A stretch of DNA of 53,708 bases, taken from the NCBI GenBank assembly GCA_003576945.1, contig QEVC01000004.1, positions 1 to 53,708 of the forward strand, read 5' to 3'. The translations under genes were made by a program, and so were the position numbers. This DNA is from Candidatus Microgenomates bacterium (GTDB lineage Bacteria > Patescibacteriota > Microgenomatia > UBA1400 > UBA12108). This document shows positions 4,929 through 40,035 of this stretch, in pieces; the stretch's first letter is position 1; each line of letters opens with the position of its first letter. Below the pieces are notes generated by a model. The model was given only the letters and a program-made list of their open reading frames with translations. It did no database searches and was not told where the DNA came from.

Positions 4929-5738
4929 CTAGTTCCAATCATGTTTGAGCGTGGTTTGTTGATTAGTGGTCTTCTTTTCCCAGTATTTAACATAGGAGCT
5001 GGCGATGTGGAGCGCGGAGTAATAAGCAAAAACAAAGCCAGGGAAACCGTCTTGGAAACCTTTGTGCCTTATATAAATTTCGATAAAACGAATAAATGGC
5101 TTAAGTATCATATATTTAATAATCGTCCACGTATTGGCACCAAGACTGAGTGCTGCATAATCAGTCGCGGCAAGGGTGGTATAGCGATTGCTCCGAAGGA
5201 GGTAGCGCGTAAAAGTGGGGTCGGCGATGTGGAGTAGATCGTTTTGGAGCCAAGCCAGAGTGCCCTCGACCGTCATTAGCTCGTGGACACTGGCCTGAGG
5301 TAATTTTGCCTTCCCCTTTTTGAATAAGCGAATGACAGGATCGGGATACATCCCACCCTTGTTCATATAGCGACCAAGAAAATAGTTGCGGCGTTTGAGG
5401 TAGTAGGCGTCTGCGGCACTCGCATTCGAGATAACTTGTTTAATTTCGTTAGCCAACATCGTACTCACCCGTTCGTCGGCGTCTAGCTGCAGGATCCAGT
5501 CTCCAGTGCAGGCATCTATCGCGATTTGTTTATTGATATGAAAGTTTTGACGATTTTGTTCATGAATAATTTTGGCGCCATATTTACTTGCGACTTCAAC
5601 TGTTTTGTCGGTTGAAGAGCCATCGACAATGACGATTTCATCGGCGATAGATCTGATAGATTCTAGACATTCACTGAGCGTTGATTCTTCGTTATAAACG
5701 GCAAGAGCAATGCTTAGTTTGGGGTGGTTGTTGTCCAT
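4929..5738 (-). CDS. GT2 glycosyltransferase (WaaE/KdtX-like)
   Basis: VDGSSTD, LDADE, VHE and GFQDGFPG motifs. Confidence 0.9.
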   Translation of the reverse strand: MDNNHPKLSIALAVYNEESTLSECLESIRSIADEIVIVDGSSTDKTVEVASKYGAKIIHEQNRQNFHINKQIAIDACTGDWILQLDADERVSTMLANEIKQVISNASAADAYYLKRRNYFLGRYMNKGGMYPDPVIRLFKKGKAKLPQASVHELMTVEGTLAWLQNDLLHIADPTFTRYLLRSNRYTTLAATDYAALSLGANTWTIIKYMILKPFIRFIEIYIRHKGFQDGFPGFVFAYYSALHIASSYVKYWEKKTTNQQTTLKHDWN

Positions 5739-5752
5739 ATGTTTAGTATATC

Positions 5753-7399
5753 TTACTTCCCTTCTGAAACGTGGAAGGCTGGGGTACCATCGGGAAAGTA
5801 AATACTTAAGGGGTGGGGGGTGCCCTCCCAGAAATCATCGCCCTTGCCGATAAAGACCATTTCGTTTTTGCCGTTATCAACGGACCAGTTGATATCGCGA
5901 AAGGTATACTTGCCGAGTGAATACTCAGGGAGCTGATCGAGCCAAGGATAACCACGAGATTCGTACTCGATCAATTTCTTATTTTCACTTTGGTACCAAG
6001 TGGGATCCCACTTGTTATAGAAAGCCAAGAACAACTGTGGTTCACCATAGGCTTTCGTCATGTAAACTCGTTTATATTTTGATTCGTTATCTTTAATCCA
6101 ACTGGCAATCTCCTTGTGTCCATACTGCCAGTCGCGGGCAAAAGCTCTGGGATACCAGACAAAATAGCTATGTAAGTAGATAATTACTTCGACAGTAAGG
6201 AGGAGATAGATCGGTTTTAGATATTTGTACTTTTTTGAGATCAAATCAACGAGCGCGACTGCGGCAATGACTTGCCACCAAGGCAGAGTAAGAATACTCC
6301 TTAAAACGTGGTAGATATCTTTGGTTAAGGCGGGTGGGATAAATCCAACTAAGACCAAGTAGATGGGGAGGTAACGGAGCGGGTGAGCTGATTTCTGGAG
6401 TAAGAATAATCCATAAACAAAGAGTGTAAATTCTACAAAATATAAAACACCACGAAAAGGGATGCTGTGCTGCGCCCTTATACTACTACTCCCTAGCAAG
6501 AAGTGGGGCGAGAGGTAGGAAGTCCAGTTAGAAAAACCCTTGGTGAGAATAAAAGTATATTTATTAAAGACTAACTTGTTGCCAAGATCACCAAAGGGTG
6601 CAGTATTGCGATACCGGAAAAAACGTTCGGTTAGCTCAGCATCTGTGGTAATACCAACCTGGTTATAACGCGCCTGGGTCTTGCCGGTTACAACATCACT
6701 CGCAATTGGATACGCAAAAAATGAAAGAATTAGCACAGGATAAATTAGCATTTTGGGAGTGAAGACTTTGCGATAAACCCAAGCCAAATAGAGCAAGAGT
6801 AGCGGAACTACGATCTTGGCACTGTGGTAGGTGTGAACGGATAAGCCGAACAATAGTACTGAGTAGAAAGTATAAAGTTGAAAGTTTTTGGACTTTTTAT
6901 CAAGAGCGATCAATAACAGATTAATTGCTGCCAAAATTAAAGCGAGAGCGACGCCTGCCTCGAACGCGGGCCGACTAAGCATGAGATGCCAAGGAGAAAC
7001 AGCAAGGAGGAGAGCGGCAAATAACCCCACCCGACGGCTATATAATCGTGTTCCTAGTGCGTAAGTTAAGTAAACAGTTAAGACCCCAAAGAGTGCGGCA
7101 GGCAAGCGAACACCCCAGGCGTTCAACCCAAAGACATTAATAAATGGAATCAGCAAGTAAATATAGACTGGAGATTTCCATTCACCGTAGGAGCGAAAGA
7201 GAATAGGCCAGGGCTCGCCCCATTCGTCTCGCCCAGTCTCTGAGAGTGAATAGGCGGTGTAACCCATGCTAATTTCGTCCCAATTGAGTTCAGGAGGGTT
7301 AGTGGAAAGGTTAAAGAGCCTAAGACTTGTTGCTAAGATAATCACACTGACGAGTGCGTGTGTTTTGATAAAACTACTTATTTTTGTGATTATTTCCAT
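5753..7399 (-). CDS. ArnT/PMT-like GT-C glycosyltransferase
   Basis: NWDE after TM1, RLPAALFG, SPWHLMLSR; multi-TM. Confidence 0.85.
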   Translation of the reverse strand: MEIITKISSFIKTHALVSVIILATSLRLFNLSTNPPELNWDEISMGYTAYSLSETGRDEWGEPWPILFRSYGEWKSPVYIYLLIPFINVFGLNAWGVRLPAALFGVLTVYLTYALGTRLYSRRVGLFAALLLAVSPWHLMLSRPAFEAGVALALILAAINLLLIALDKKSKNFQLYTFYSVLLFGLSVHTYHSAKIVVPLLLLYLAWVYRKVFTPKMLIYPVLILSFFAYPIASDVVTGKTQARYNQVGITTDAELTERFFRYRNTAPFGDLGNKLVFNKYTFILTKGFSNWTSYLSPHFLLGSSSIRAQHSIPFRGVLYFVEFTLFVYGLFLLQKSAHPLRYLPIYLVLVGFIPPALTKDIYHVLRSILTLPWWQVIAAVALVDLISKKYKYLKPIYLLLTVEVIIYLHSYFVWYPRAFARDWQYGHKEIASWIKDNESKYKRVYMTKAYGEPQLFLAFYNKWDPTWYQSENKKLIEYESRGYPWLDQLPEYSLGKYTFRDINWSVDNGKNEMVFIGKGDDFWEGTPHPLSIYFPDGTPAFHVSEGK

Positions 7400-34233: not shown

Positions 34234-34341
34234 ACTCCGATTATGATAGCACCCGAGGCTGTTATTGGCTACGCTTGCCGAAAGCAAATTTCTGTTGATC
34301 CCTATATCGCCTAACGTATGGTGTGTATGCGAGGTTTTGCT

Positions 34342-34560
34342 TTAAATTTTGAGAAATTCCTCGACTGTCATCTCACATTGTCTGAGAATTGCGCGTAAGG
34401 CACCTTTCGGGATATCTCGGCTATGCAAAGCTACCGTAGACGCACGACCATCCGGATGAATAAGTCTAGCGTGACTACCAGTTTGCCGTGAAATCTTAAA
34501 TCCAGCTTTTTCTAACTTCTTGACTACTGCCAGTGGTTTGAGAACTGGGAGTTTGGGCAT
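34342..34560 (-). CDS. hicA: HicA-family toxin (mRNA interferase)
   Basis: LEKAGF..RQTGSH...H..DIPKGALRAILRQ; 72 aa. Confidence 0.9.
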   Translation of the reverse strand: MPKLPVLKPLAVVKKLEKAGFKISRQTGSHARLIHPDGRASTVALHSRDIPKGALRAILRQCEMTVEEFLKI

Positions 34561-34561
34561 A

Positions 34562-34849
34562 CTAAACGGCAAATCTGGTATAGGGAGTAACCTGGAAAGG
34601 TACCTGGGTATTAGTCACCAATTCTTCGTTAGGCTTATCAACGGGAATTTCTTTATGTTCTTTTTGCAAACACTCGACATGAAAGGCGATAGTGCTCTGG
34701 ATATTATCGAGTGCTTCTTGAGGGGTAGGCCCATCGTCGACCACACCTAGAGTGGGACAATATGCAACATAGCACGCTTTTTTGCTACCCAGGCTTTTAT
34801 CAAGGCGTAATATTACACGATAGTCGAGAACGGTCTTTTGTTGTTTCAT
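34562..34849 (-). CDS. hicB: HicB-family antitoxin (short form)
   Basis: YVAYCPTLGVVDDGPTPQEALDNIQSTI...EIP. Start moved to ATG 34849, behind extended -10 TGCTATACT. Confidence 0.85.
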   Translation of the reverse strand: MKQQKTVLDYRVILRLDKSLGSKKACYVAYCPTLGVVDDGPTPQEALDNIQSTIAFHVECLQKEHKEIPVDKPNEELVTNTQVPFQVTPYTRFAV

Positions 34850-35029
34850 AGTACTTGGAGTATAGCAAAAATCGGGAAAATATAAAGGCAAATTGTGGGC
34901 GAACGACTGCAAGGAGTGGAGCCGCATACACGCTAGTTAGGTGACCCGAGCGGAATGTGGCAAAATGCTCCCCTGCCACACGAAGTGAGAGTGCAACGGG
35001 GTGCGAGTGAAACGAGCAAGTTACAAACT

Positions 35030-35488
35030 TTACGATCTATTTATTAGCTCGGACAATGGCGGAACGCCATAGTCCTTTCGTTCTTGGTCTGATGTTTTGG
35101 GATCGTAGTCGCAGATTATTCCTGTGGCATTATTAAATTGGGTTCCGAATTTCTGTTTTTTACCTTGAGATACGAGCCACCTATCCAGACTGGCGGCATA
35201 CAACCACTTCGTTACGTTGGAACCCAATTTAATTGCCTTTTGAGCGTACTCATGCGCCAGTTTGTATGTGGCGGGAACATCAGACCATGAATGCATGAGC
35301 AATAAACAGGCATAATGACAATTCCATATTTCATTTTCATCTAGTGTTGGAAGAATTGTATTTAACACCTCTTGCCGATGAATATCGTTTTGTTTGAGTT
35401 GATCCTCGGATAATTTGCCTTCGTCAAATAGCTGACGATCACTTTTATCACTTAAATACAATTCTTCCAACTGTAAATGGATTGTCAT
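35030..35488 (-). CDS. Hypothetical helical protein (DUF6624-like C-terminal motif), cassette gene
   Basis: 152-aa ORF with LYAASLDRWLVSQGKKQKFGTQF...ERKDYGVPPL; family recalled, not verified. Confidence 0.6.
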   Translation of the reverse strand: MTIHLQLEELYLSDKSDRQLFDEGKLSEDQLKQNDIHRQEVLNTILPTLDENEIWNCHYACLLLMHSWSDVPATYKLAHEYAQKAIKLGSNVTKWLYAASLDRWLVSQGKKQKFGTQFNNATGIICDYDPKTSDQERKDYGVPPLSELINRS

Positions 35489-35510
35489 TATGAGTAAATT
35501 TTGTAATTAC

Positions 35511-35627
35511 GTCTAACGTATGGTGTGTATCTGATGTTTGGCGGACTTATAATGGATTATACTCACAAATCCGCCTGATATGGGAGAACGAGTGCAACGA
35601 AGTGAACCAGATACACGCTAGTTCTAC
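35511..35627 (-). repeat. attC-like site (117 bp, no gene in loop)
   Basis: GTCTAAC-gta-TGGTGTGTATCTG ... CAGATACACGCTA-GTTCTAC; inner GGCGGA/TCCGCC stem. Confidence 0.75.
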
Positions 35628-35722
35628 GACCCGAATGGAGCGAAGTATAATCTGAAAGCTCTTAATACTCCGCGGAATGAGAGTGCAACGCGATCGAGGA
35701 GCGTAGCGACGAAGACGTAATG

Positions 35723-35935
35723 CTACTCTGAGGAAGAACCTTCTTCATGCTCTAGCCAAGGGCCATCTACAATTATCTTGCGAAGGATCCTCATTTTATC
35801 TACGGAGAGTCTTTCTAACTGTTTCAGTTGAGATTTAAACTCCTCGTTAGTCGCTTCACCTTGGTATCTAACATAATCCTGAGCAAGTCTTCCCTCCTTG
35901 GCTAGAGACTCAGCTATGTCCATTAAGTTTGCCAT
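35723..35935 (-). CDS. Small hypothetical helical protein, cassette gene
   Basis: 70-aa ORF with upstream AAAGGAG; fills the space between two sites. Confidence 0.7.
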   Translation of the reverse strand: MANLMDIAESLAKEGRLAQDYVRYQGEATNEEFKSQLKQLERLSVDKMRILRKIIVDGPWLEHEEGSSSE

Positions 35936-35967
35936 ATTTCTTACTCCTTTCTGAGTAGCATTATGTC

Positions 35968-36409
35968 GCCTAACGTACAGCGTGTATGCGAGGTTATTAA
36001 GTTTTTGATACCTCCTCTAATATTTGCCTAAGTTTTCTAGATTCTTTCATGGCCTCCTCCACTTTTTCTTGAGTTATGGATTTGCTAAGCAGGATTGGAA
36101 TAATGCGAGACTGGTGAGCGATGAAACTATCGAGAGGCATAAGGGCACCGCCATGTTTTGACCAAGCCTCCTTTGCACCCTCCCAATTTTTGATTGAGGC
36201 ATCGATCACCAAAGTCTCTCGCAACTTCTTAAATTCATAATGCTTAGAAATCCATACCGTGATAATTGAGGCCATGAAACCTATGAGCGAACCTCCCAAT
36301 CCTGCGATTAATGTAGTAAGCTCTGGTGTCATGATGATAATTGTATCAAAAACTAAATAATCTGGGCGAACGACTGCAAGGAGTGGAGCCGCATACACGC
36401 TAGTTAGAT
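35968..36409 (-). repeat. Expanded attC-like site (442 bp) enclosing a 111-aa ORF
   Basis: GCCTAAC-gta-CAGCGTGTATGCG (35968-35990) pairs with CGCATACACGCTA-GTTAGAT (36390-36409). Confidence 0.7.
35997..36332 (-). CDS. Hypothetical protein with N-terminal TM helix
   Basis: MTPELTTLIAGLGGSLIGFMASIITVWI. Start moved to ATG 36332, 7 nt after extended -10 TGATACAAT. Confidence 0.7.
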   Translation of the reverse strand: MTPELTTLIAGLGGSLIGFMASIITVWISKHYEFKKLRETLVIDASIKNWEGAKEAWSKHGGALMPLDSFIAHQSRIIPILLSKSITQEKVEEAMKESRKLRQILEEVSKT

Positions 36410-36507
36410 GACCTGAGCGCGAGGTGATATGATCCCCCGATCACCTCGAGCGAGAGTGCAACGCGGTGCGGAGTGAAACGGAGCAAGTTAGCAACTCTCA
36501 CTAAAAA

Positions 36508-36852
36508 TTAGTTAATCTTTTCGAAGCCGTTGAAGTGAGGCTTATCGTCGTTGAATACTTCTATAACTTTATATCTTCCTTTTGTCCAGACCTCGCCAGC
36601 TTCTAGATAGTGAGTAGCGTCGAGGATGATAATACTAGCTTTGGGACGGGATAAAACTTGATTGCCTTGTGTCTCTAGGAGCGGAAGTTCGCCGTGCAAC
36701 CAATACAACCTCTGATCTTTTTTGAGAAAGGAATAGGTTTGGCCAACCTCTAACTTTTCGGGGATACATTCCTCTATTTTTCGGTTGCCGGCATGAAATT
36801 CCGCGACATTGCGTAAAGCGAGGTCTGGATTGTATTCAACGACGATACCCAT
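36508..36852 (-). CDS. Hypothetical protein, cassette gene
   Basis: 114-aa ORF; TATAAT just upstream; enclosed by a perfect 14-bp inverted repeat. Confidence 0.75.
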   Translation of the reverse strand: MGIVVEYNPDLALRNVAEFHAGNRKIEECIPEKLEVGQTYSFLKKDQRLYWLHGELPLLETQGNQVLSRPKASIIILDATHYLEAGEVWTKGRYKVIEVFNDDKPHFNGFEKIN

Positions 36853-36898
36853 ATATGTTGATTATAACCCTTCCTTGATTGTGAGAGTTGCTAATTTC

Positions 36899-37018
36899 AT
36901 CTAACGGGCACTGTATATCTGACGTTGGACGGGTTGATAATTGAGTTTATTGTACCCTAACCCGTCCAATGTGGGTCGAAGGAGTGCAACGACTGAGCCA
37001 GATATACAGTAGTTGTAC
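36899..37018 (-). repeat. attC-like site (120 bp, no gene in loop)
   Basis: ATCTAAC-ggg-CACTGTATATCTG ... CAGATATACAGTA-GTTGTAC; inner 14-bp stem at 36922-36935/36959-36972. Confidence 0.75.
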
Positions 37019-37248
37019 GACCCGAAGCCCACACGCTAAAATCACTCAACTTAAAGCGGGTGGGCTGAGAGTGCAACGAGGTCGAACGACTGCAAGGAGT
37101 GAGATGTCTATTTGTTCCTTAATTCAGTTCGCGCGCGCTTTTACATGTACCCTGTATTCATTTTCAGCTCAGTGTAGAGGGGTTAGGGGTGAATACACTG
37201 AGCTGAATGCTCCCCTAGTCTCCAACTCTGGTGGATATGTCCTATAAC

Positions 37249-37277
37249 TTGACAAAAAGCTATATATCTGGTATGCT
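37249..37277 (+). promoter_or_regulatory. Sigma70 promoter TTGACA-17-TATGCT with extended TG
   Basis: Consensus -35 and 17-bp spacer; both boxes are conserved in copy 2 while the spacer varies. Confidence 0.8.
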
Positions 37278-37284
37278 ACCAAAT

Positions 37285-37475
37285 GTTGTAGTAGTCTGCC
37301 ATGCTGCAAATAGATTGCTATTTCCCAGCGTGAATGAACCAACTATAACTGCACCTTAAAATGCGGAAGTTATCTCCTTTGCCAAGTGGGTAATTTTGTG
37401 GATATTGTCGTGTCTACAAAAATACCCATTTGGGTAGAAAAACGTTTTTCTATTCTGTTCTACAAAAGGAGATAT
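37285..37475 (+). ncRNA. Putative structured leader RNA, copy 1
   Basis: Nested stems GTTGTAGT/ACTATAAC, CATGCTG/CAGCGTG and AAATAG/CTATTT; long hairpin 37382-37433; anti-SD TATCTCCTTT. Confidence 0.55.
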
Positions 37476-37478
37476 ACC

Positions 37479-38063
37479 ATGTTCAAGAAAGCCCCCCGTA
37501 AGGAAGATGGATTGGATCTGTTTGCTCGCGCACTCGGAGCCAAATCCGGATCGGACGCCATTCTCAGACAAGAAGCTGACGGTCAACGCTCGTTCGTAGG
37601 TAGCGACACGCTCCCAACCGAAATGAGTGCTGATGATCGCACTGCTCTCGAAGCCGCAGGCGTTGTGTTCGGCGAAGTTGTGCCAGGCGATGACTTGTTC
37701 CAGTATGTTCAGCTCCCCGCTGGATGGACCAAGCGTAGCACGAGCCACTCGATGCACAATGACCTTCTCGATGAGAAAGGTCGCAAGCGTGCAGGCATTT
37801 TCTACAAAGCCGCGTTCTACGACCGCAACGCTCACCTCTACTGTGTGCGCCGCTTCGGCATCAACCTGGACTATGACCAGCTCGAGAATGGGATTGTGCT
37901 TGTGCAGGTGACTGACTGCGATGAAGTGGTTTACTCCACTAATCCTGTTCCGTTCGAAAAGAGCGAAGAGCGCCTTGCACGTGAACAGGCATTCGAAGTC
38001 GCCAAGTCCTGGCTGAACAGCAACTATCCCGAATGGGAAAACGCCGCCGCCTACTGGGACTAA
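37479..38063 (+). CDS. Hypothetical, probably phage-type protein (cargo 1, 194 aa)
   Basis: Strong SD AAAAGGAG. LPAGW...HSMH..LLDEKGRKRAGIFYKAAFYDR is recalled from phage hypothetical proteins (unverified). GC is higher than in the flanks. Confidence 0.75.
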   Translation: MFKKAPRKEDGLDLFARALGAKSGSDAILRQEADGQRSFVGSDTLPTEMSADDRTALEAAGVVFGEVVPGDDLFQYVQLPAGWTKRSTSHSMHNDLLDEKGRKRAGIFYKAAFYDRNAHLYCVRRFGINLDYDQLENGIVLVQVTDCDEVVYSTNPVPFEKSEERLAREQAFEVAKSWLNSNYPEWENAAAYWD

Positions 38064-38095
38064 TTCCTCACCTTCCGCAAGGTGCAAAACGCTCG

Positions 38096-38148
38096 ACCCC
38101 TCCGGTCACGTCCACGTAAGTGGAAAGATTGGAGGGGTGTTTTGTATC
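38096..38148 (+). terminator. Terminator-like hairpin, copy 1
   Basis: ACCCCTCC...GGAGGGGT followed by GTTTTGTAT. Confidence 0.55.
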
Positions 38149-38352
38149 TATTAACTTTCGCTATACAAAGTGGCAATTTTAGCGCTTTAATTAACAAAAG
38201 TCGCCGTAGGCGACACCTCATCCCCCTCTAAAAATAATATACCTTTACATGTACTCTGTATTCCATTTCAGCTCAGTGTAGAGGGGTTAGGGGTGAATAC
38301 ACTGAGCTGAATGCTACCCATACCATCACCTCTGGTGGATATGTCCTATAAC

Positions 38353-38381
38353 TTGACAAATGACTACATATCTGGTATGCT
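38353..38381 (+). promoter_or_regulatory. Sigma70 promoter TTGACA-17-TATGCT
   Basis: Same as 37249-37277, offset by 1104 bp. Confidence 0.8.
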
Positions 38382-38388
38382 ACGAGAT

Positions 38389-38570
38389 GTTGTAGTAGTC
38401 TGCCATGCTGCAAATAGTTTGCTATTTCCCAGCGTGAAAGAACCCACTATAACTGCACATTAAAATGCGGAAGTTATCTCCTTCTATTGTGGGTAGCACT
38501 TTTGGTATCAAAAGTGGTACTAAGTGTGCTACTCACAAGTAGTGAAACCCCAACCCACCCAAAAGGAGTA
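38389..38570 (+). ncRNA. Putative structured leader RNA, copy 2
   Basis: Same stems as copy 1; a hairpin of different sequence at the equivalent place (38487-38538); CTCCTT anti-SD. Confidence 0.55.
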
Positions 38571-38577
38571 CTGAAAA

Positions 38578-38886
38578 ATGAACGATAAAGTTATTACCCT
38601 CCCGAGCGCTGATGAAATGATTGCTCGCCTGATGAAAGTTCAGGATGATGAACTCGCCCAGTCACTGTACAGGAACGTTGCGCAGCGTGCTGGCGAGGAG
38701 AAGGTTGCGGCTGGCATCATTATGATGTTCAGTCTTGGCATCTACGATGTCTGCCAGGGATACCCTCCCATGATGCAGAACCTTCTCTCCTACAACATCC
38801 CCGCGTGGGTCGACGCCCTTGTTGATGACAAGGAAGTTGCCGATGCGGCTAAGGCTTTCTGGAAGGAAGCTACGAGCAAGAAATAA
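38578..38886 (+). CDS. Hypothetical protein (cargo 2, 102 aa)
   Basis: SD AAAAGGAG at 38561-38568; no similarity to cargo 1. Confidence 0.75.
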   Translation: MNDKVITLPSADEMIARLMKVQDDELAQSLYRNVAQRAGEEKVAAGIIMMFSLGIYDVCQGYPPMMQNLLSYNIPAWVDALVDDKEVADAAKAFWKEATSKK

Positions 38887-38984
38887 GTCTTCGCGAGGTC
38901 AAATATTGAAACCACTAGCTGGGCGACGTAAGTCGACGGGTTACTCCGTTATCAGTTATACTTCCGCAAAAGAAGTGCAGACAT

Positions 38985-39054
38985 CCCCTCCGAATAGTCG
39001 GAAATTGTTGCGTAAGTTGCAACGTTTTTGATTATAGGAGGGGTGTTTTGTATC
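38985..39054 (+). terminator. Terminator-like hairpin, copy 2
   Basis: CCCCTCC...GGAGGGG followed by TGTTTTGTATC. Confidence 0.55.
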
Positions 39055-39168
39055 ACTTTAGTTAATGAAAGTCGCCGTAGGCGACACCTCATCCCCCTCT
39101 AAAAATAATATACCTTTACATGTAATGTAAAAGCGCGCGCGAACATATAAATAGTACAAATAGATATC

Positions 39169-39207
39169 GTACAACTAGTGTGTATGCGAATAATGTTCGC
39201 ATACACA
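39169..39207 (-). other. attI-like recombination site
   Basis: Core GTTGTAC on - strand, next to a perfect 12-bp hairpin TGTGTATGCGAA-taatg-TTCGCATACACA, 21 bp upstream of the integrase start. Confidence 0.65.
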
Positions 39208-39228: not shown

Positions 39229-40035
39229 ATGTGGAAAGAACGATTACAACTATATATGCAGGCTCGTGCATACAGCAGACGAACCATATCTGCGTATATT
39301 GATTCTGTCGATCGGATAGTCAAGAAAACGAGAAAAGATCCAGCTAATATAGATGAGCAAACGCTAGAAAAATACCTGAGCCAACTATACAGCTCTGGCA
39401 TGTCGCCCTATACCCTCAACCAGCACCACATGGCGTTAAAATTACTTAAGACTGCGGTACTTGGTCAGTCGTGGGACCCTAAGTTTGGCTATGCCAAAAG
39501 ACCAAAGAAAATCCCCGTTACACTAACTAAGAATGAGATCTCAAAATTAATAGATTCGACTGCTAATCCAAAACATCAGTTAATACTGGCTCTCGCATAT
39601 GGCGCAGGCCTACGGGTCAGCGAAATAATCGCCCTTAAAGTAATGGATATCGATTTTGAGAACATGCGGGTTGTAGTACGGAGTGGCAAAGGACAAAAAG
39701 ATCGAACGACAGTCCTCCCTGATAAGTTAGTCACCACTCTCAATTCGTATCTCGCAGGACGCAAAAAAGACGACCATGTCTTTTTGAGTGAGCGAGGTGG
39801 GACACTAACTACCAGGACGCTACAAGCGATATTTGCTAAATCGCTAAATCGTGCCGCGATTAATAAGGCCGCCACCTTTCACAGTCTCAGACACAGTTTT
39901 GCCACTCACCTCCTTGAGCAGGGTGTAGATATTAGGTATATCCAGACACTGCTCGGCCATGCTAGTATTACGACAACTCAGATTTATACTCATGTTGCGA
40001 GTACTGCACTACATAATATCAGGAGCCCATTATGA
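39229..40035 (+). CDS. IntI-like tyrosine recombinase (268 aa) lacking the integron-specific insert
   Basis: YGAGLRVSE (R), GKGQKDR (K), HSLRHSFATHLLE (HxxR), LLGH, TTQIYTHV (Y); C-terminal RSPL as in IntI. Confidence 0.9.
   Translation: MWKERLQLYMQARAYSRRTISAYIDSVDRIVKKTRKDPANIDEQTLEKYLSQLYSSGMSPYTLNQHHMALKLLKTAVLGQSWDPKFGYAKRPKKIPVTLTKNEISKLIDSTANPKHQLILALAYGAGLRVSEIIALKVMDIDFENMRVVVRSGKGQKDRTTVLPDKLVTTLNSYLAGRKKDDHVFLSERGGTLTTRTLQAIFAKSLNRAAINKAATFHSLRHSFATHLLEQGVDIRYIQTLLGHASITTTQIYTHVASTALHNIRSPL

Follow-up and report, generated by a model that had tools for sequence, protein, structure and literature searches.

Integrons are the main engine of bacterial gene-cassette exchange and are defined by one protein domain together with a hairpin recombination site of 60-140 nt. 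Classical integrons recombine folded bottom strands, and their IntI-specific domain contacts extrahelical bases, which set the choice of strand. Among other systems of interest here, attP of the CTX phage is a forked hairpin of the single-stranded phage genome that is recombined by XerCD, pdif sites are 28-bp double-stranded dif-like sites of alternating orientation, and the viroid-like Obelisk RNAs are rod-like coding RNA replicons. Here we describe an integron-like array of cassettes that occurs in the genomes of one Microgenomates family of the candidate phyla radiation (CPR), based on a 53,708-nt stretch of a Candidatus Microgenomates bacterium (contig QEVC01000004.1 of assembly GCA_003576945.1), hereafter the window. 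An earlier note on this DNA had pointed out that the cassette genes are each enclosed by an inverted repeat of their own. We found these repeats to be real, private and far beyond chance, and we estimate at roughly 60% the probability that they are the outermost stems, or clamps, of a fold comprising the whole cassette, with selection acting on single-strand folding that lets recombination sites meet at a junction. The window was analysed within its 825-kb genome, with open reading frames (ORFs) picked by a simple greedy rule; coordinates refer to the + strand of the window. Cassettes with genes on the minus strand are called type 1, and those with genes on the plus strand, such as cassette 1, are called type 2.

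In several respects the locus is organized like an integron, such as the class 1 mobile integrons or the chromosomal integron of Vibrio cholerae. The array runs one way, consists of short genes that are mostly orphans or toxin-antitoxin pairs, and has a recombinase gene diverging from it. RYYYAAC/GTTRRRY boxes mark the sites, which also have a second inverted pair and a variable hairpin besides an unpaired spacer, and the limits of the exchanged units lie at AAC/GTT; by analogy, a folded single strand would be the substrate here as well. The recombinase adjoins the array and is divergent from the type-1 genes, with an attI-type site in between, which is the integron layout. It passes the NCBIfam XerA/integron-integrase model with 225.7 bits (cut-off 220) and stays below the cut-off of the IntI model TIGR02249 (215 vs 265), the match being split into two stretches. 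In the alignment to VchIntIA (2a3v), 15 residues of the query (181-195) stand against 58 residues of IntI4 (187-244), and judging by this alignment the recombinase lacks the IntI-specific domain (around patch III). In the preprint 10.1101/2022.02.06.479319, this domain is given as the defining feature of IntI. Since the recombinase thus falls outside the definition of an integron integrase, we do not file the array as an integron proper; the name used in the earlier note suits the site, the layout and the crossover, but not the recombinase. The other differences concern DNA: a site of ~200 nt with a second conserved hairpin domain, a private clamp set on a conserved helix that touches the crossover box, genes located inside the site hairpin, and cargo coding sequences that are self-complementary. 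Box-joined private clamps, a second hairpin domain, genes in the site hairpin and self-complementary cargo were not found in the integron literature searched. In other words, the locus follows integron logic without the IntI domain, with a larger folded site, private closing stems and many self-pairing cargo genes.

Comparison with the other systems leads to a similar mixture of likeness and difference. As in CTX attP, there is a Xer-type recombinase without the IntI domain and a site that would be formed by folded single-stranded DNA; however, CTX is one phage genome with one dif-like site and has no array, cassettes or private stems. The pdif modules of Acinetobacter plasmids likewise are gene modules, often toxin-antitoxin, bracketed by Xer-type sites, whereas here the sites are one-way, long folded structures and the bracketing repeats are private; no dif-like 11-6-11 site, which would mark a pdif module, was seen at module limits in the array sequence and 23 slots. 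ORF-bearing intervening sequences of 23S rRNA also have a small gene bracketed by a ~20-bp inverted repeat (one unit elsewhere in this genome, on contig C17, is alike), but theirs are not joined to recombination boxes or arrays. The likeness to Obelisk RNAs is one of form only: an ORF lies within a nucleic acid paired along its full length, but Obelisks are RNA replicons.

We recomputed the repeats on the window, and all seven pairs listed in the earlier note were recovered at their positions (Table 1), including the hicBA pair, which had been called imperfect and indeed pairs only with a gap. An independent repeat search returned the same pairs, several of them longer (17 nt at 94%, 18 nt at 89% and 44 nt at 80%). 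As also noted before, a stop codon lies within four of the arms, namely those of hicA (34342-34344), ORF35030 (35030-35032), ORF35723 (35723-35725) and ORF35997 (35997-35999); the arm of ORF36508 ends 7 nt before the stop codon. The claim that each pair has its own sequence is right for type-1 arms, which are private, and only partly so for cassette 1, the arms of which are members of a family of related arms with paired, compensating changes between cassettes.

To judge these repeats, we scored each ORF or cassette by the best ungapped repeat that its two ends share. Such repeats do not flank non-array genes equally often, an outcome that would have spoken against the earlier proposal: among 868 ORFs of at least 60 aa in the genome, the flank-to-flank score reaches at least 10 in only 10, four of which come from the array and comprise all of its single-gene ORFs. 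The remaining six are one ORF with ~44-nt terminal repeats, one with a 21-nt repeat, and others that are weak or at a contig end. The former is a 1959-nt ORF (contig C2, 126-2084) that, judged from its flanks, is probably an insertion sequence; the latter is a 131-aa gene (contig C17, 18396-18791) bracketed by a repeat of TCAGA-periodic type. Across the window and its relatives, the two ends of the same cassette score at least 11 in 20 of 26 slots (median 14.5), and ends taken from different cassettes do so in 6 of 650 combinations (median 6), all among type-2 units. Repeats of at least 15 nt at 90% or more are absent from three ordinary stretches of 5.1 kb elsewhere in the window, and the array stretch has eight. 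In the surroundings of 62 distant recombinase relatives, which are 34-76% identical in the segment that matched, a score of at least 12 was seen in 7 of the 945 ORFs listed. By these genome-wide, own-versus-other-end, window-stretch and distant-relative controls, a chance origin of the repeats is ruled out.

What the clamps are attached to became apparent when 23 between-site slots were lined up and their pairs counted by hand. Every private stem grows from a short conserved helix of 4-5 bp. Its left arm, G-A-N-G-T, directly follows the linker of the preceding site, and its right arm, A-T-N'-T-C, abuts the next RYYYAAC crossover box with zero linker. The pair adjoining the private stem is a G opposite a T on the + strand in 22 of the 23 rows. 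The next pair outward varies: C:G in 6 rows, T:A in 4, A:T in 10, with 2 non-Watson-Crick combinations and 1 unclear. Because this conserved base helix abuts the crossover 7-mer, we regard the clamp as an extension of the site rather than an appendage of the gene. The geometry of the clamp and the fixed G·T keep the polarity of the array for both type-1 (minus) and type-2 (plus) cargo, and outside this fixed position the private stems are nearly free of G·T pairs. Type-2 units are built somewhat differently, with a covarying 13-bp outer stem, a conserved internal loop and an inner stem of 19-28 bp; the inner stems of the various units are akin to one another, their differences being double changes that compensate.

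The sites themselves are highly regular. The inter-gene stretches to the left of the recombinase are copies of one ~200-nt element with two hairpin domains, all in a single orientation, and its conserved words are found nowhere else in the genome. Domain I is attC-like and has, in + strand order, the RYYYAAC 7-mer, a 7-nt spacer, an L-box word and a variable hairpin, V2; a conserved side stretch then leads to the complement of the L-box word, a spacer of 4 nt and GTTRRRY. The spacer is unpaired and unequal. Domain II consists of GACCCGA, a second variable hairpin, V1, the unpaired conserved word GAGTGCAACG and closing bases, after which comes a variable linker of ~20 nt. Folded as single-stranded DNA, three single elements gave z-scores of -5.9, -4.6 and -1.7 relative to shuffles. 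The RNAalifold consensus of 30 complete elements from 12 genomes has 32 pairs, 22 of which are changed on both sides; this alignment and its covariation display the R''/R' and L''/L' pairs, the unpaired spacer and the variable terminal structure by which attC sites are recognized. A G·T is fixed on the + strand at columns 37-98 in 29 of the 30 elements. The loops of both variable hairpins contain promoter-like words: that of V2 (for example at 35555-35570) has a conserved word, TATAAT on the strand of the cassette genes and TATACT on the other, and that of V1 (for example at 35650-35660) has TAAAAT-like words on the + strand. No usable -35 was found beside the TATAAT-like words of the V2 and V1 loops, which might be -10 elements of promoters or else be contacted by protein on single-stranded DNA.

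The array is not confined to the window. A DNA search detected the element in 16 of 23 other genomes of the family and in none of 37 genomes from other families of the order. One locus, L001, has an 88%-identical recombinase and a homologous array with wholly different cargo, and with a profile of seven elements we mapped arrays in 15 further stretches. Checking homologous arrays had been proposed in the earlier note, and there the repeats recur: the end-to-end score is at least 11 in 16 of 20 inter-element cassettes, with sequences and cargo all different, and the best repeats reach 28/28, 21/21 and 20/20. The arms in relatives lie close against the ORF, and several extend over its stop codon; in L087 and L088 the start codon is covered as well. 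Further stems lie inside the cassettes of relatives, including one of 16/16 within the clamp in L096, 18/18 and 25/28 in L087, and others in L088 and L085.

Natural variants are consistent with this picture. They were collected from assembled contigs of DNA runs X9 and X10, which come from different studies, a level at which rare variants are below reach. These contigs cease to match the window at the AAC of 39169-39175. Downstream of the break an attC-like element replaces the attI-like site, and upstream of it the arm of another cassette, with its own four box letters, replaces cassette 1. As read from such variants, the limits of the cassettes and the point of exchange are at AAC, as in an integron, where crossover falls at G|TT (AA|C on the bottom strand), and since the arm is exchanged together with the cassette, the clamp arm travels with it. 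In one contig, element E is joined to cassette 1 with 19 other letters in between, and the ORF36508 cassette and element F are absent. An X10 variant has cassette 1 with module 2 only. Finally, a contig joint with matching loose ends indicates the replacement of 35996-36358, that is, ORF35997 and the private part of its arms, by a short V2-type hairpin.

The last variant is related to an unusual arrangement of the hicBA genes and of ORF35997. According to the element profile, each of the two cargoes sits inside one element, between the L-box halves, replacing V2: partial profile matches start at model positions 70 and 56, respectively, and the left halves were located by pattern at 34309 and 35968. 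In L001, an element of the same type has a ~40-nt V2 hairpin at the position of ORF35997. As the genes lie between element halves, their private repeats are the stem that closes the variable hairpin belonging to the site itself. For ORF35997, two homologous proteins have N- or C-terminal extensions that read through the same flanking element words, and thus the arrangement of ORF35997 occurs elsewhere too. No filled V2 hairpin was seen among the 30 complete elements of relatives. The arm of ORF35997 covers the residues V-S-K-T, which are invariant in all five homologues, at least two of which are cassette-borne too. A search for DNA of ORF35997 orthologues came up empty in 24 genomes of the family and in 286 of the order (its own included); a metagenome scan returned a single 32% match, and the five close homologues are known as proteins only.

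Pairing does not end at the clamps. We folded cargo interiors as single-stranded DNA with the clamps removed and compared them with shuffles; the resulting z-scores describe single folds, not genome-wide distributions. For 14 interiors they are -9.0, -8.8, -8.2, -5.8, -4.9, -4.4, -3.9, -3.5, -3.2, -2.3, -1.4, -1.4, -0.4 and -0.3, and in the nine cases at or below -3.2 no shuffle folds as well. Four ordinary genes of the window gave +1.1, -0.2, +0.2 and +0.9, and one type-2 gene gave -1.4. When a stretch consisting of an element, a cassette and the next element was folded as a whole, two site hairpins, a cassette rod starting from the clamp and the next site were obtained (z -10.4).

The clearest case is ORF35030, the interior of which has z-scores of -9.0 on the + strand and -11.5 on the - strand. 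It is a genuine protein, with 50 homologues that are ~152 residues long, range down to 45% identity and share many invariant positions. A 64%-identical homologue from another family of the class has an ordinary chromosomal context: it begins 5 nt past the upstream stop codon and is followed at the 3' side by a terminator-like hairpin. This non-cassette homologue has no notable repeats and a z-score of -0.01; two distant non-cassette homologues gave -2.0 and +0.2. By our reading, the cassette copy uses mutually complementary codons for conserved residues close to the N-terminus and in the region of positions 40-60, whereas the free homologue encodes the same residues by other codons. Since ORF35030 is structured and its free homologue is not, self-complementarity has been imposed on an existing gene, partly via the choice of codons, which speaks for selection on folding rather than for a scar of cassette birth. 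The comparison also answers which arm is native, a question posed in the earlier note: neither is, as both lie almost wholly outside the coding sequence. Within 35300-35488 the start and first codons (M-T-I) are complementary to the N-C-H codons of an I-W-N-C-H-Y motif; in 12 aligned homologues its C is nearly invariant and the other five residues are invariant. Functional positions of the protein are thereby recruited into a stem.

The idea, put forward in the earlier note, that the single strand loops the gene out is thus supported by inference, considering that pairing is conserved without sequence, that changes are compensating and that the arm travels with its cassette. The sequence of events might be as follows. 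Once the strand becomes single, during replication or uptake, the cargo would fold as a stem-closed loop, mostly a rod, and the crossover box at one end of the cassette would meet the cassette's own site at the other end in one junction. In the array, such a fold would hold together both sites that exchange strands for excision; in the freed circle, the clamp would close the weak 7-bp R box into a three-way junction. The adjacent Xer-like recombinase would then exchange strands at AAC. Single-stranded DNA would be the working form, the clamps might aid synapsis or the stability of the site, and the recombinase presumably acts on these sites. As it lacks the domain that contacts extrahelical bases, a DNA clamp in cis could supply the missing stabilisation. 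PMC12614218 reports excision of cassettes out of linear single-stranded DNA acquired by transformation, and PMC5371416 reports that excision drops as cassettes get longer if the lagging-strand template carries the bottom strands.

A number of observations weigh against whole-cassette folding. A good clamp is missing in 6 of the 26 slots, and 4 of the 14 cargo interiors, with z from -0.3 to -1.4, are at the control level. For the element, either strand yields a consensus fold of near-equal score (-20.0 vs -19.3), and cargo interiors fold about equally on either strand in the five stretches for which both were folded; only two fixed G·T positions, one in the clamp and one at element columns 37-98, favour the + strand. 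Stems without G·T pairs, up to 28/28, would also fit recent templated copying. The relatives are kin genomes, so that counts overstate independence, and L084 and L001 represent one contig. The IntI-specific domain was reportedly found by Messier and Roy in 2001 to be needed for integron recombination, which leaves the activity of our recombinase on folded sites only putative. Last, two type-2 cassettes with ends from different cassettes persist in L001 (5640-6155 and 4480-5440, corresponding to 6024-6553 and 4862-5824 in L084); their inner stems pair poorly, the left and right ends being of different lineages. This looks like recombination inside cassettes. One of the mismatched right ends matches the partner of a cassette in L085.

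Could the stems act in RNA instead? They might pair the 5' and 3' ends of a transcript for RNase III processing, as in rRNA intervening sequences with an ORF, for exonuclease protection or for translational silencing. The same genome does have an intervening-sequence-like gene with a 21-nt bracketing repeat (C17 18396-18791), and several 5' arms cover a start codon (in L087 and L088). In RNA runs, analysed as contigs only, so that RNA ends and strands are not resolvable, contigs from two studies cover both genes of cassette 1 at a depth of 61-346, and type-1 cassettes have low-depth contigs in X15 (3.5-4.6) and none in X18, parts of the array having no RNA cover at all; strongly folded type-1 cassettes thus have low or no RNA and the weakly folded type-2 cassette is well covered, which might fit a link between folding and silence. 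However, the polarity of the clamp follows the array and not the gene strand, and the sense RNA of type-1 genes would have an A·C mismatch in place of the fixed G·T. Selected RNA helices are not usually so poor in G·T pairs as the stems are outside that position; in addition, the base helix lies directly against the crossover box, and at breakpoints the arms move with the cassette. Moreover, the sole RNA contig over a type-1 clamp (35589-35976) continues through both arms, although it is of low depth and may be DNA. We therefore regard a role in RNA as unlikely.

Another explanation, proposed in the earlier note, is that the repeats are a scar of cassette formation, one end being an inverted copy of the other or of the gene end, functionless now. 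Near-perfect Watson-Crick stems, up to 28/28, 21/21 and 20/20, are what a templated copy gives; the arms hug the ORF and often include its stop or start codon, and the residues under the ORF35997 arm are invariant in 5/5 homologues. In addition, no reliable model of cassette genesis exists according to PMC4792948, so that nothing known forbids a scar. Nevertheless, most arm bases are non-coding and the clamp grows from the conserved helix of the site, which speaks against copying from the gene end. A footprint of cassette making is hard to reconcile with pairing that continues into the coding sequence and with the free homologue of ORF35030 that has no repeats. A scar would leave unexplained the conserved base helix with its covarying third pair, the compensating differences among type-2 arms, the nested coding-region stems in several genomes, and the ORF35030 contrast (z -9.0 vs -0.01 for the same residues in different codons). 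The evidence thus points away from a birth scar, which seems to us improbable, although it does not settle how cassettes are born.

Least probable of all is that small non-autonomous transposable elements inserted between the recombination sites and left the repeats as their terminal inverted repeats, a view that would concern chiefly the type-2 units: although type-2 end sequences and the inner hairpin are conserved across genomes, the units have promoter-like signals and opposite-strand genes of their own, modules are gained and lost at a 10-nt direct repeat, and an element resembling an insertion sequence with ~44-nt terminal repeats is present in the genome (C2), type-1 arms share no sequence (the 6/650 cross matches are all type-2), so that no single transposase would recognise them, target-site duplications were not seen in the flanks of 23 slots, the type-2 end motifs GTTCCTTAA and AATAGTACAA occur elsewhere in the genome three times and once, respectively, and never paired on one contig, inner-hairpin motifs occur in cassette 1 only, and the arms are confined to arrays and lie at a fixed distance from the crossover box. 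The same repeats in all copies and duplications, which are expected of transposons or miniature inverted-repeat transposable elements, are not what we find, though this is less clear for type-2 units, which share end sequences.

Returning to the fold of the whole cassette, it is tempting to go a step further and speculate that the cassettes are adapted to a single-stranded DNA stage, that selection for a rod fold shapes codons, and that the clamp replaces the role of the IntI domain in synapsis, so that an ordinary Xer-like recombinase runs an integron. We consider this broader scheme a tentative possibility. If true, it would represent a second, DNA-architecture-based solution to cassette recombination and perhaps a window on the origin of integrons from Xer systems. 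Even if only the fold is functional, it would follow that codon choice in real genes can yield to selection acting on single-stranded DNA, that an entire class of CPR arrays escapes standard integron finders, and that there is a testable handle on how two recombination sites meet on one strand.

The features of the array are given in Table 1. Rfam at gathering thresholds gave no matches in the whole window, and PHROGs and PADLOC scans of 10 cargo proteins returned a weak HicB-like match only.

Table 1. Features of the cassette array and its recombinase, listed from the recombinase leftward (positions in the window; z, fold z-score relative to shuffles, for cassettes without the clamp)
Feature	Position	Strand	Description
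Xer-like tyrosine recombinase	39229-40035	+	268 aa; transcribed away from array; Pfam Phage_integrase 4.5e-45
attI-like site	39169-39206		7-mer box (GTACAAC on +), 4-nt spacer, L-box hairpin; L-box motifs at 39180 and 39199; kept beside the 88%-identical recombinase in L001; variant identity breaks at its AAC
Cassette 1 (type 2)	37103-39168	+	outer stem 37103-37115/39156-39168, conserved internal loop, inner stem 37127-37146/39125-39144
Cassette 1 repeat pair, inner	37127-37146/39125-39144		20/20
Cassette 1 repeat pair, outer	37103-37114/39157-39168		11/12
Cassette 1 genes	37479-38063 and 38578-38886	+	in two tandem promoter-bearing modules
Complete attC-like element F	36899-37102	+	nhmmer model positions 2-200; single-stranded DNA fold z -5.9; alignment, covariation
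Element F, Domain I			R box, L box, V2 hairpin
Element F, Domain II			GACCCGA, V1 hairpin, unpaired GAGTGCAACG; linker after
ORF36508 cassette body	36485-36897	-	clamp 36485-36501/36881-36897; ORF 36508-36852
ORF36508 repeat pair	36488-36501/36881-36894		14/14
ORF36508 inner stem	36543-36558/36832-36847		16/16, inside ORF; interior z -3.5
Split attC-like element D/E	35968-36484	+	left half 35968-35995 (pattern search), right half 36359-36484
Element D/E, right half	36359-36484		partial nhmmer match, model positions 56-186
ORF35997	35997-36332	-	with its arms in place of V2 hairpin; interior z -3.2
ORF35997 repeat pair	35991-36011/36343-36363		19/21
ORF35723 cassette body	35714-35967	-	clamp 35714-35731/35950-35967; ORF 35723-35935; interior z -1.4
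ORF35723 repeat pair	35714-35728/35953-35967		14/15
Complete attC-like element C	35511-35713	+	nhmmer model positions 2-200; fold; alignment
ORF35030 cassette body	35021-35506	-	clamp 35021-35033/35494-35506; ORF 35030-35488; DUF6624-like family
ORF35030 repeat pair	35021-35033/35494-35506		12/13
ORF35030 internal stems	35081-35096/35276-35291; 35132-35146/35219-35233; 35338-35365/35452-35479		15/16; 15/15; 25/28
Terminal split attC-like element A/B	34309-35020	+	left half 34309-34336 (pattern), right half ~34894-35020
Element A/B, right half	~34894-35020		partial nhmmer match, model positions 70-181
hicA	34342-34572	-	HicA match 3.8e-18
hicB	34562-34852 or 34562-34927	-	start choice; HicB-like match 8.6e-5
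hicBA arms (repeat pair)	34332-34350/34877-34896		19 nt/20 nt, gapped; genes in place of V2 hairpin; interior z -1.4

At its far end, the array of the window closes with the complete hicBA-filled element, which adjoins a gene for UDP-glucose dehydrogenase. The arrays of relatives finish with a truncated element that has no left R-box/L-box half; in L085, L089 and L093 this element adjoins apparently the same chromosomal gene. The GC skew of the + strand is positive across the window, with values of 0.014-0.05 near the array that are too weak for assignment of leading and lagging strands; should the skew be genuine, the sites would have their + strand as lagging-strand template.

Cassette 1 has an additional level of organization. 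It consists of two tandem modules, and copies of a 10-nt direct repeat (at 37140, 38244 and 39115) mark their bounds. Each module has a conserved hairpin, a TTGACA/TATGCT promoter-like pair and a shared leader of ~100 nt, together with an orphan gene on the + strand and a terminator-like hairpin. These modules may represent a second, nested layer of module exchange. The conserved hairpin, which is perfect, with a 14-bp stem and a G-rich 17-nt loop, is found at the left of every type-2 module (37163-37207 and 38267-38311 in the window, ~5705-5750 and 8747-8790 in L001), and its stem has compensating changes between genomes. Toward its right end the module has a C-rich tail (38215-38230 and 39086-39101) to which the G-rich loop is almost complementary, and this suggests a further long-range contact within type-2 modules.

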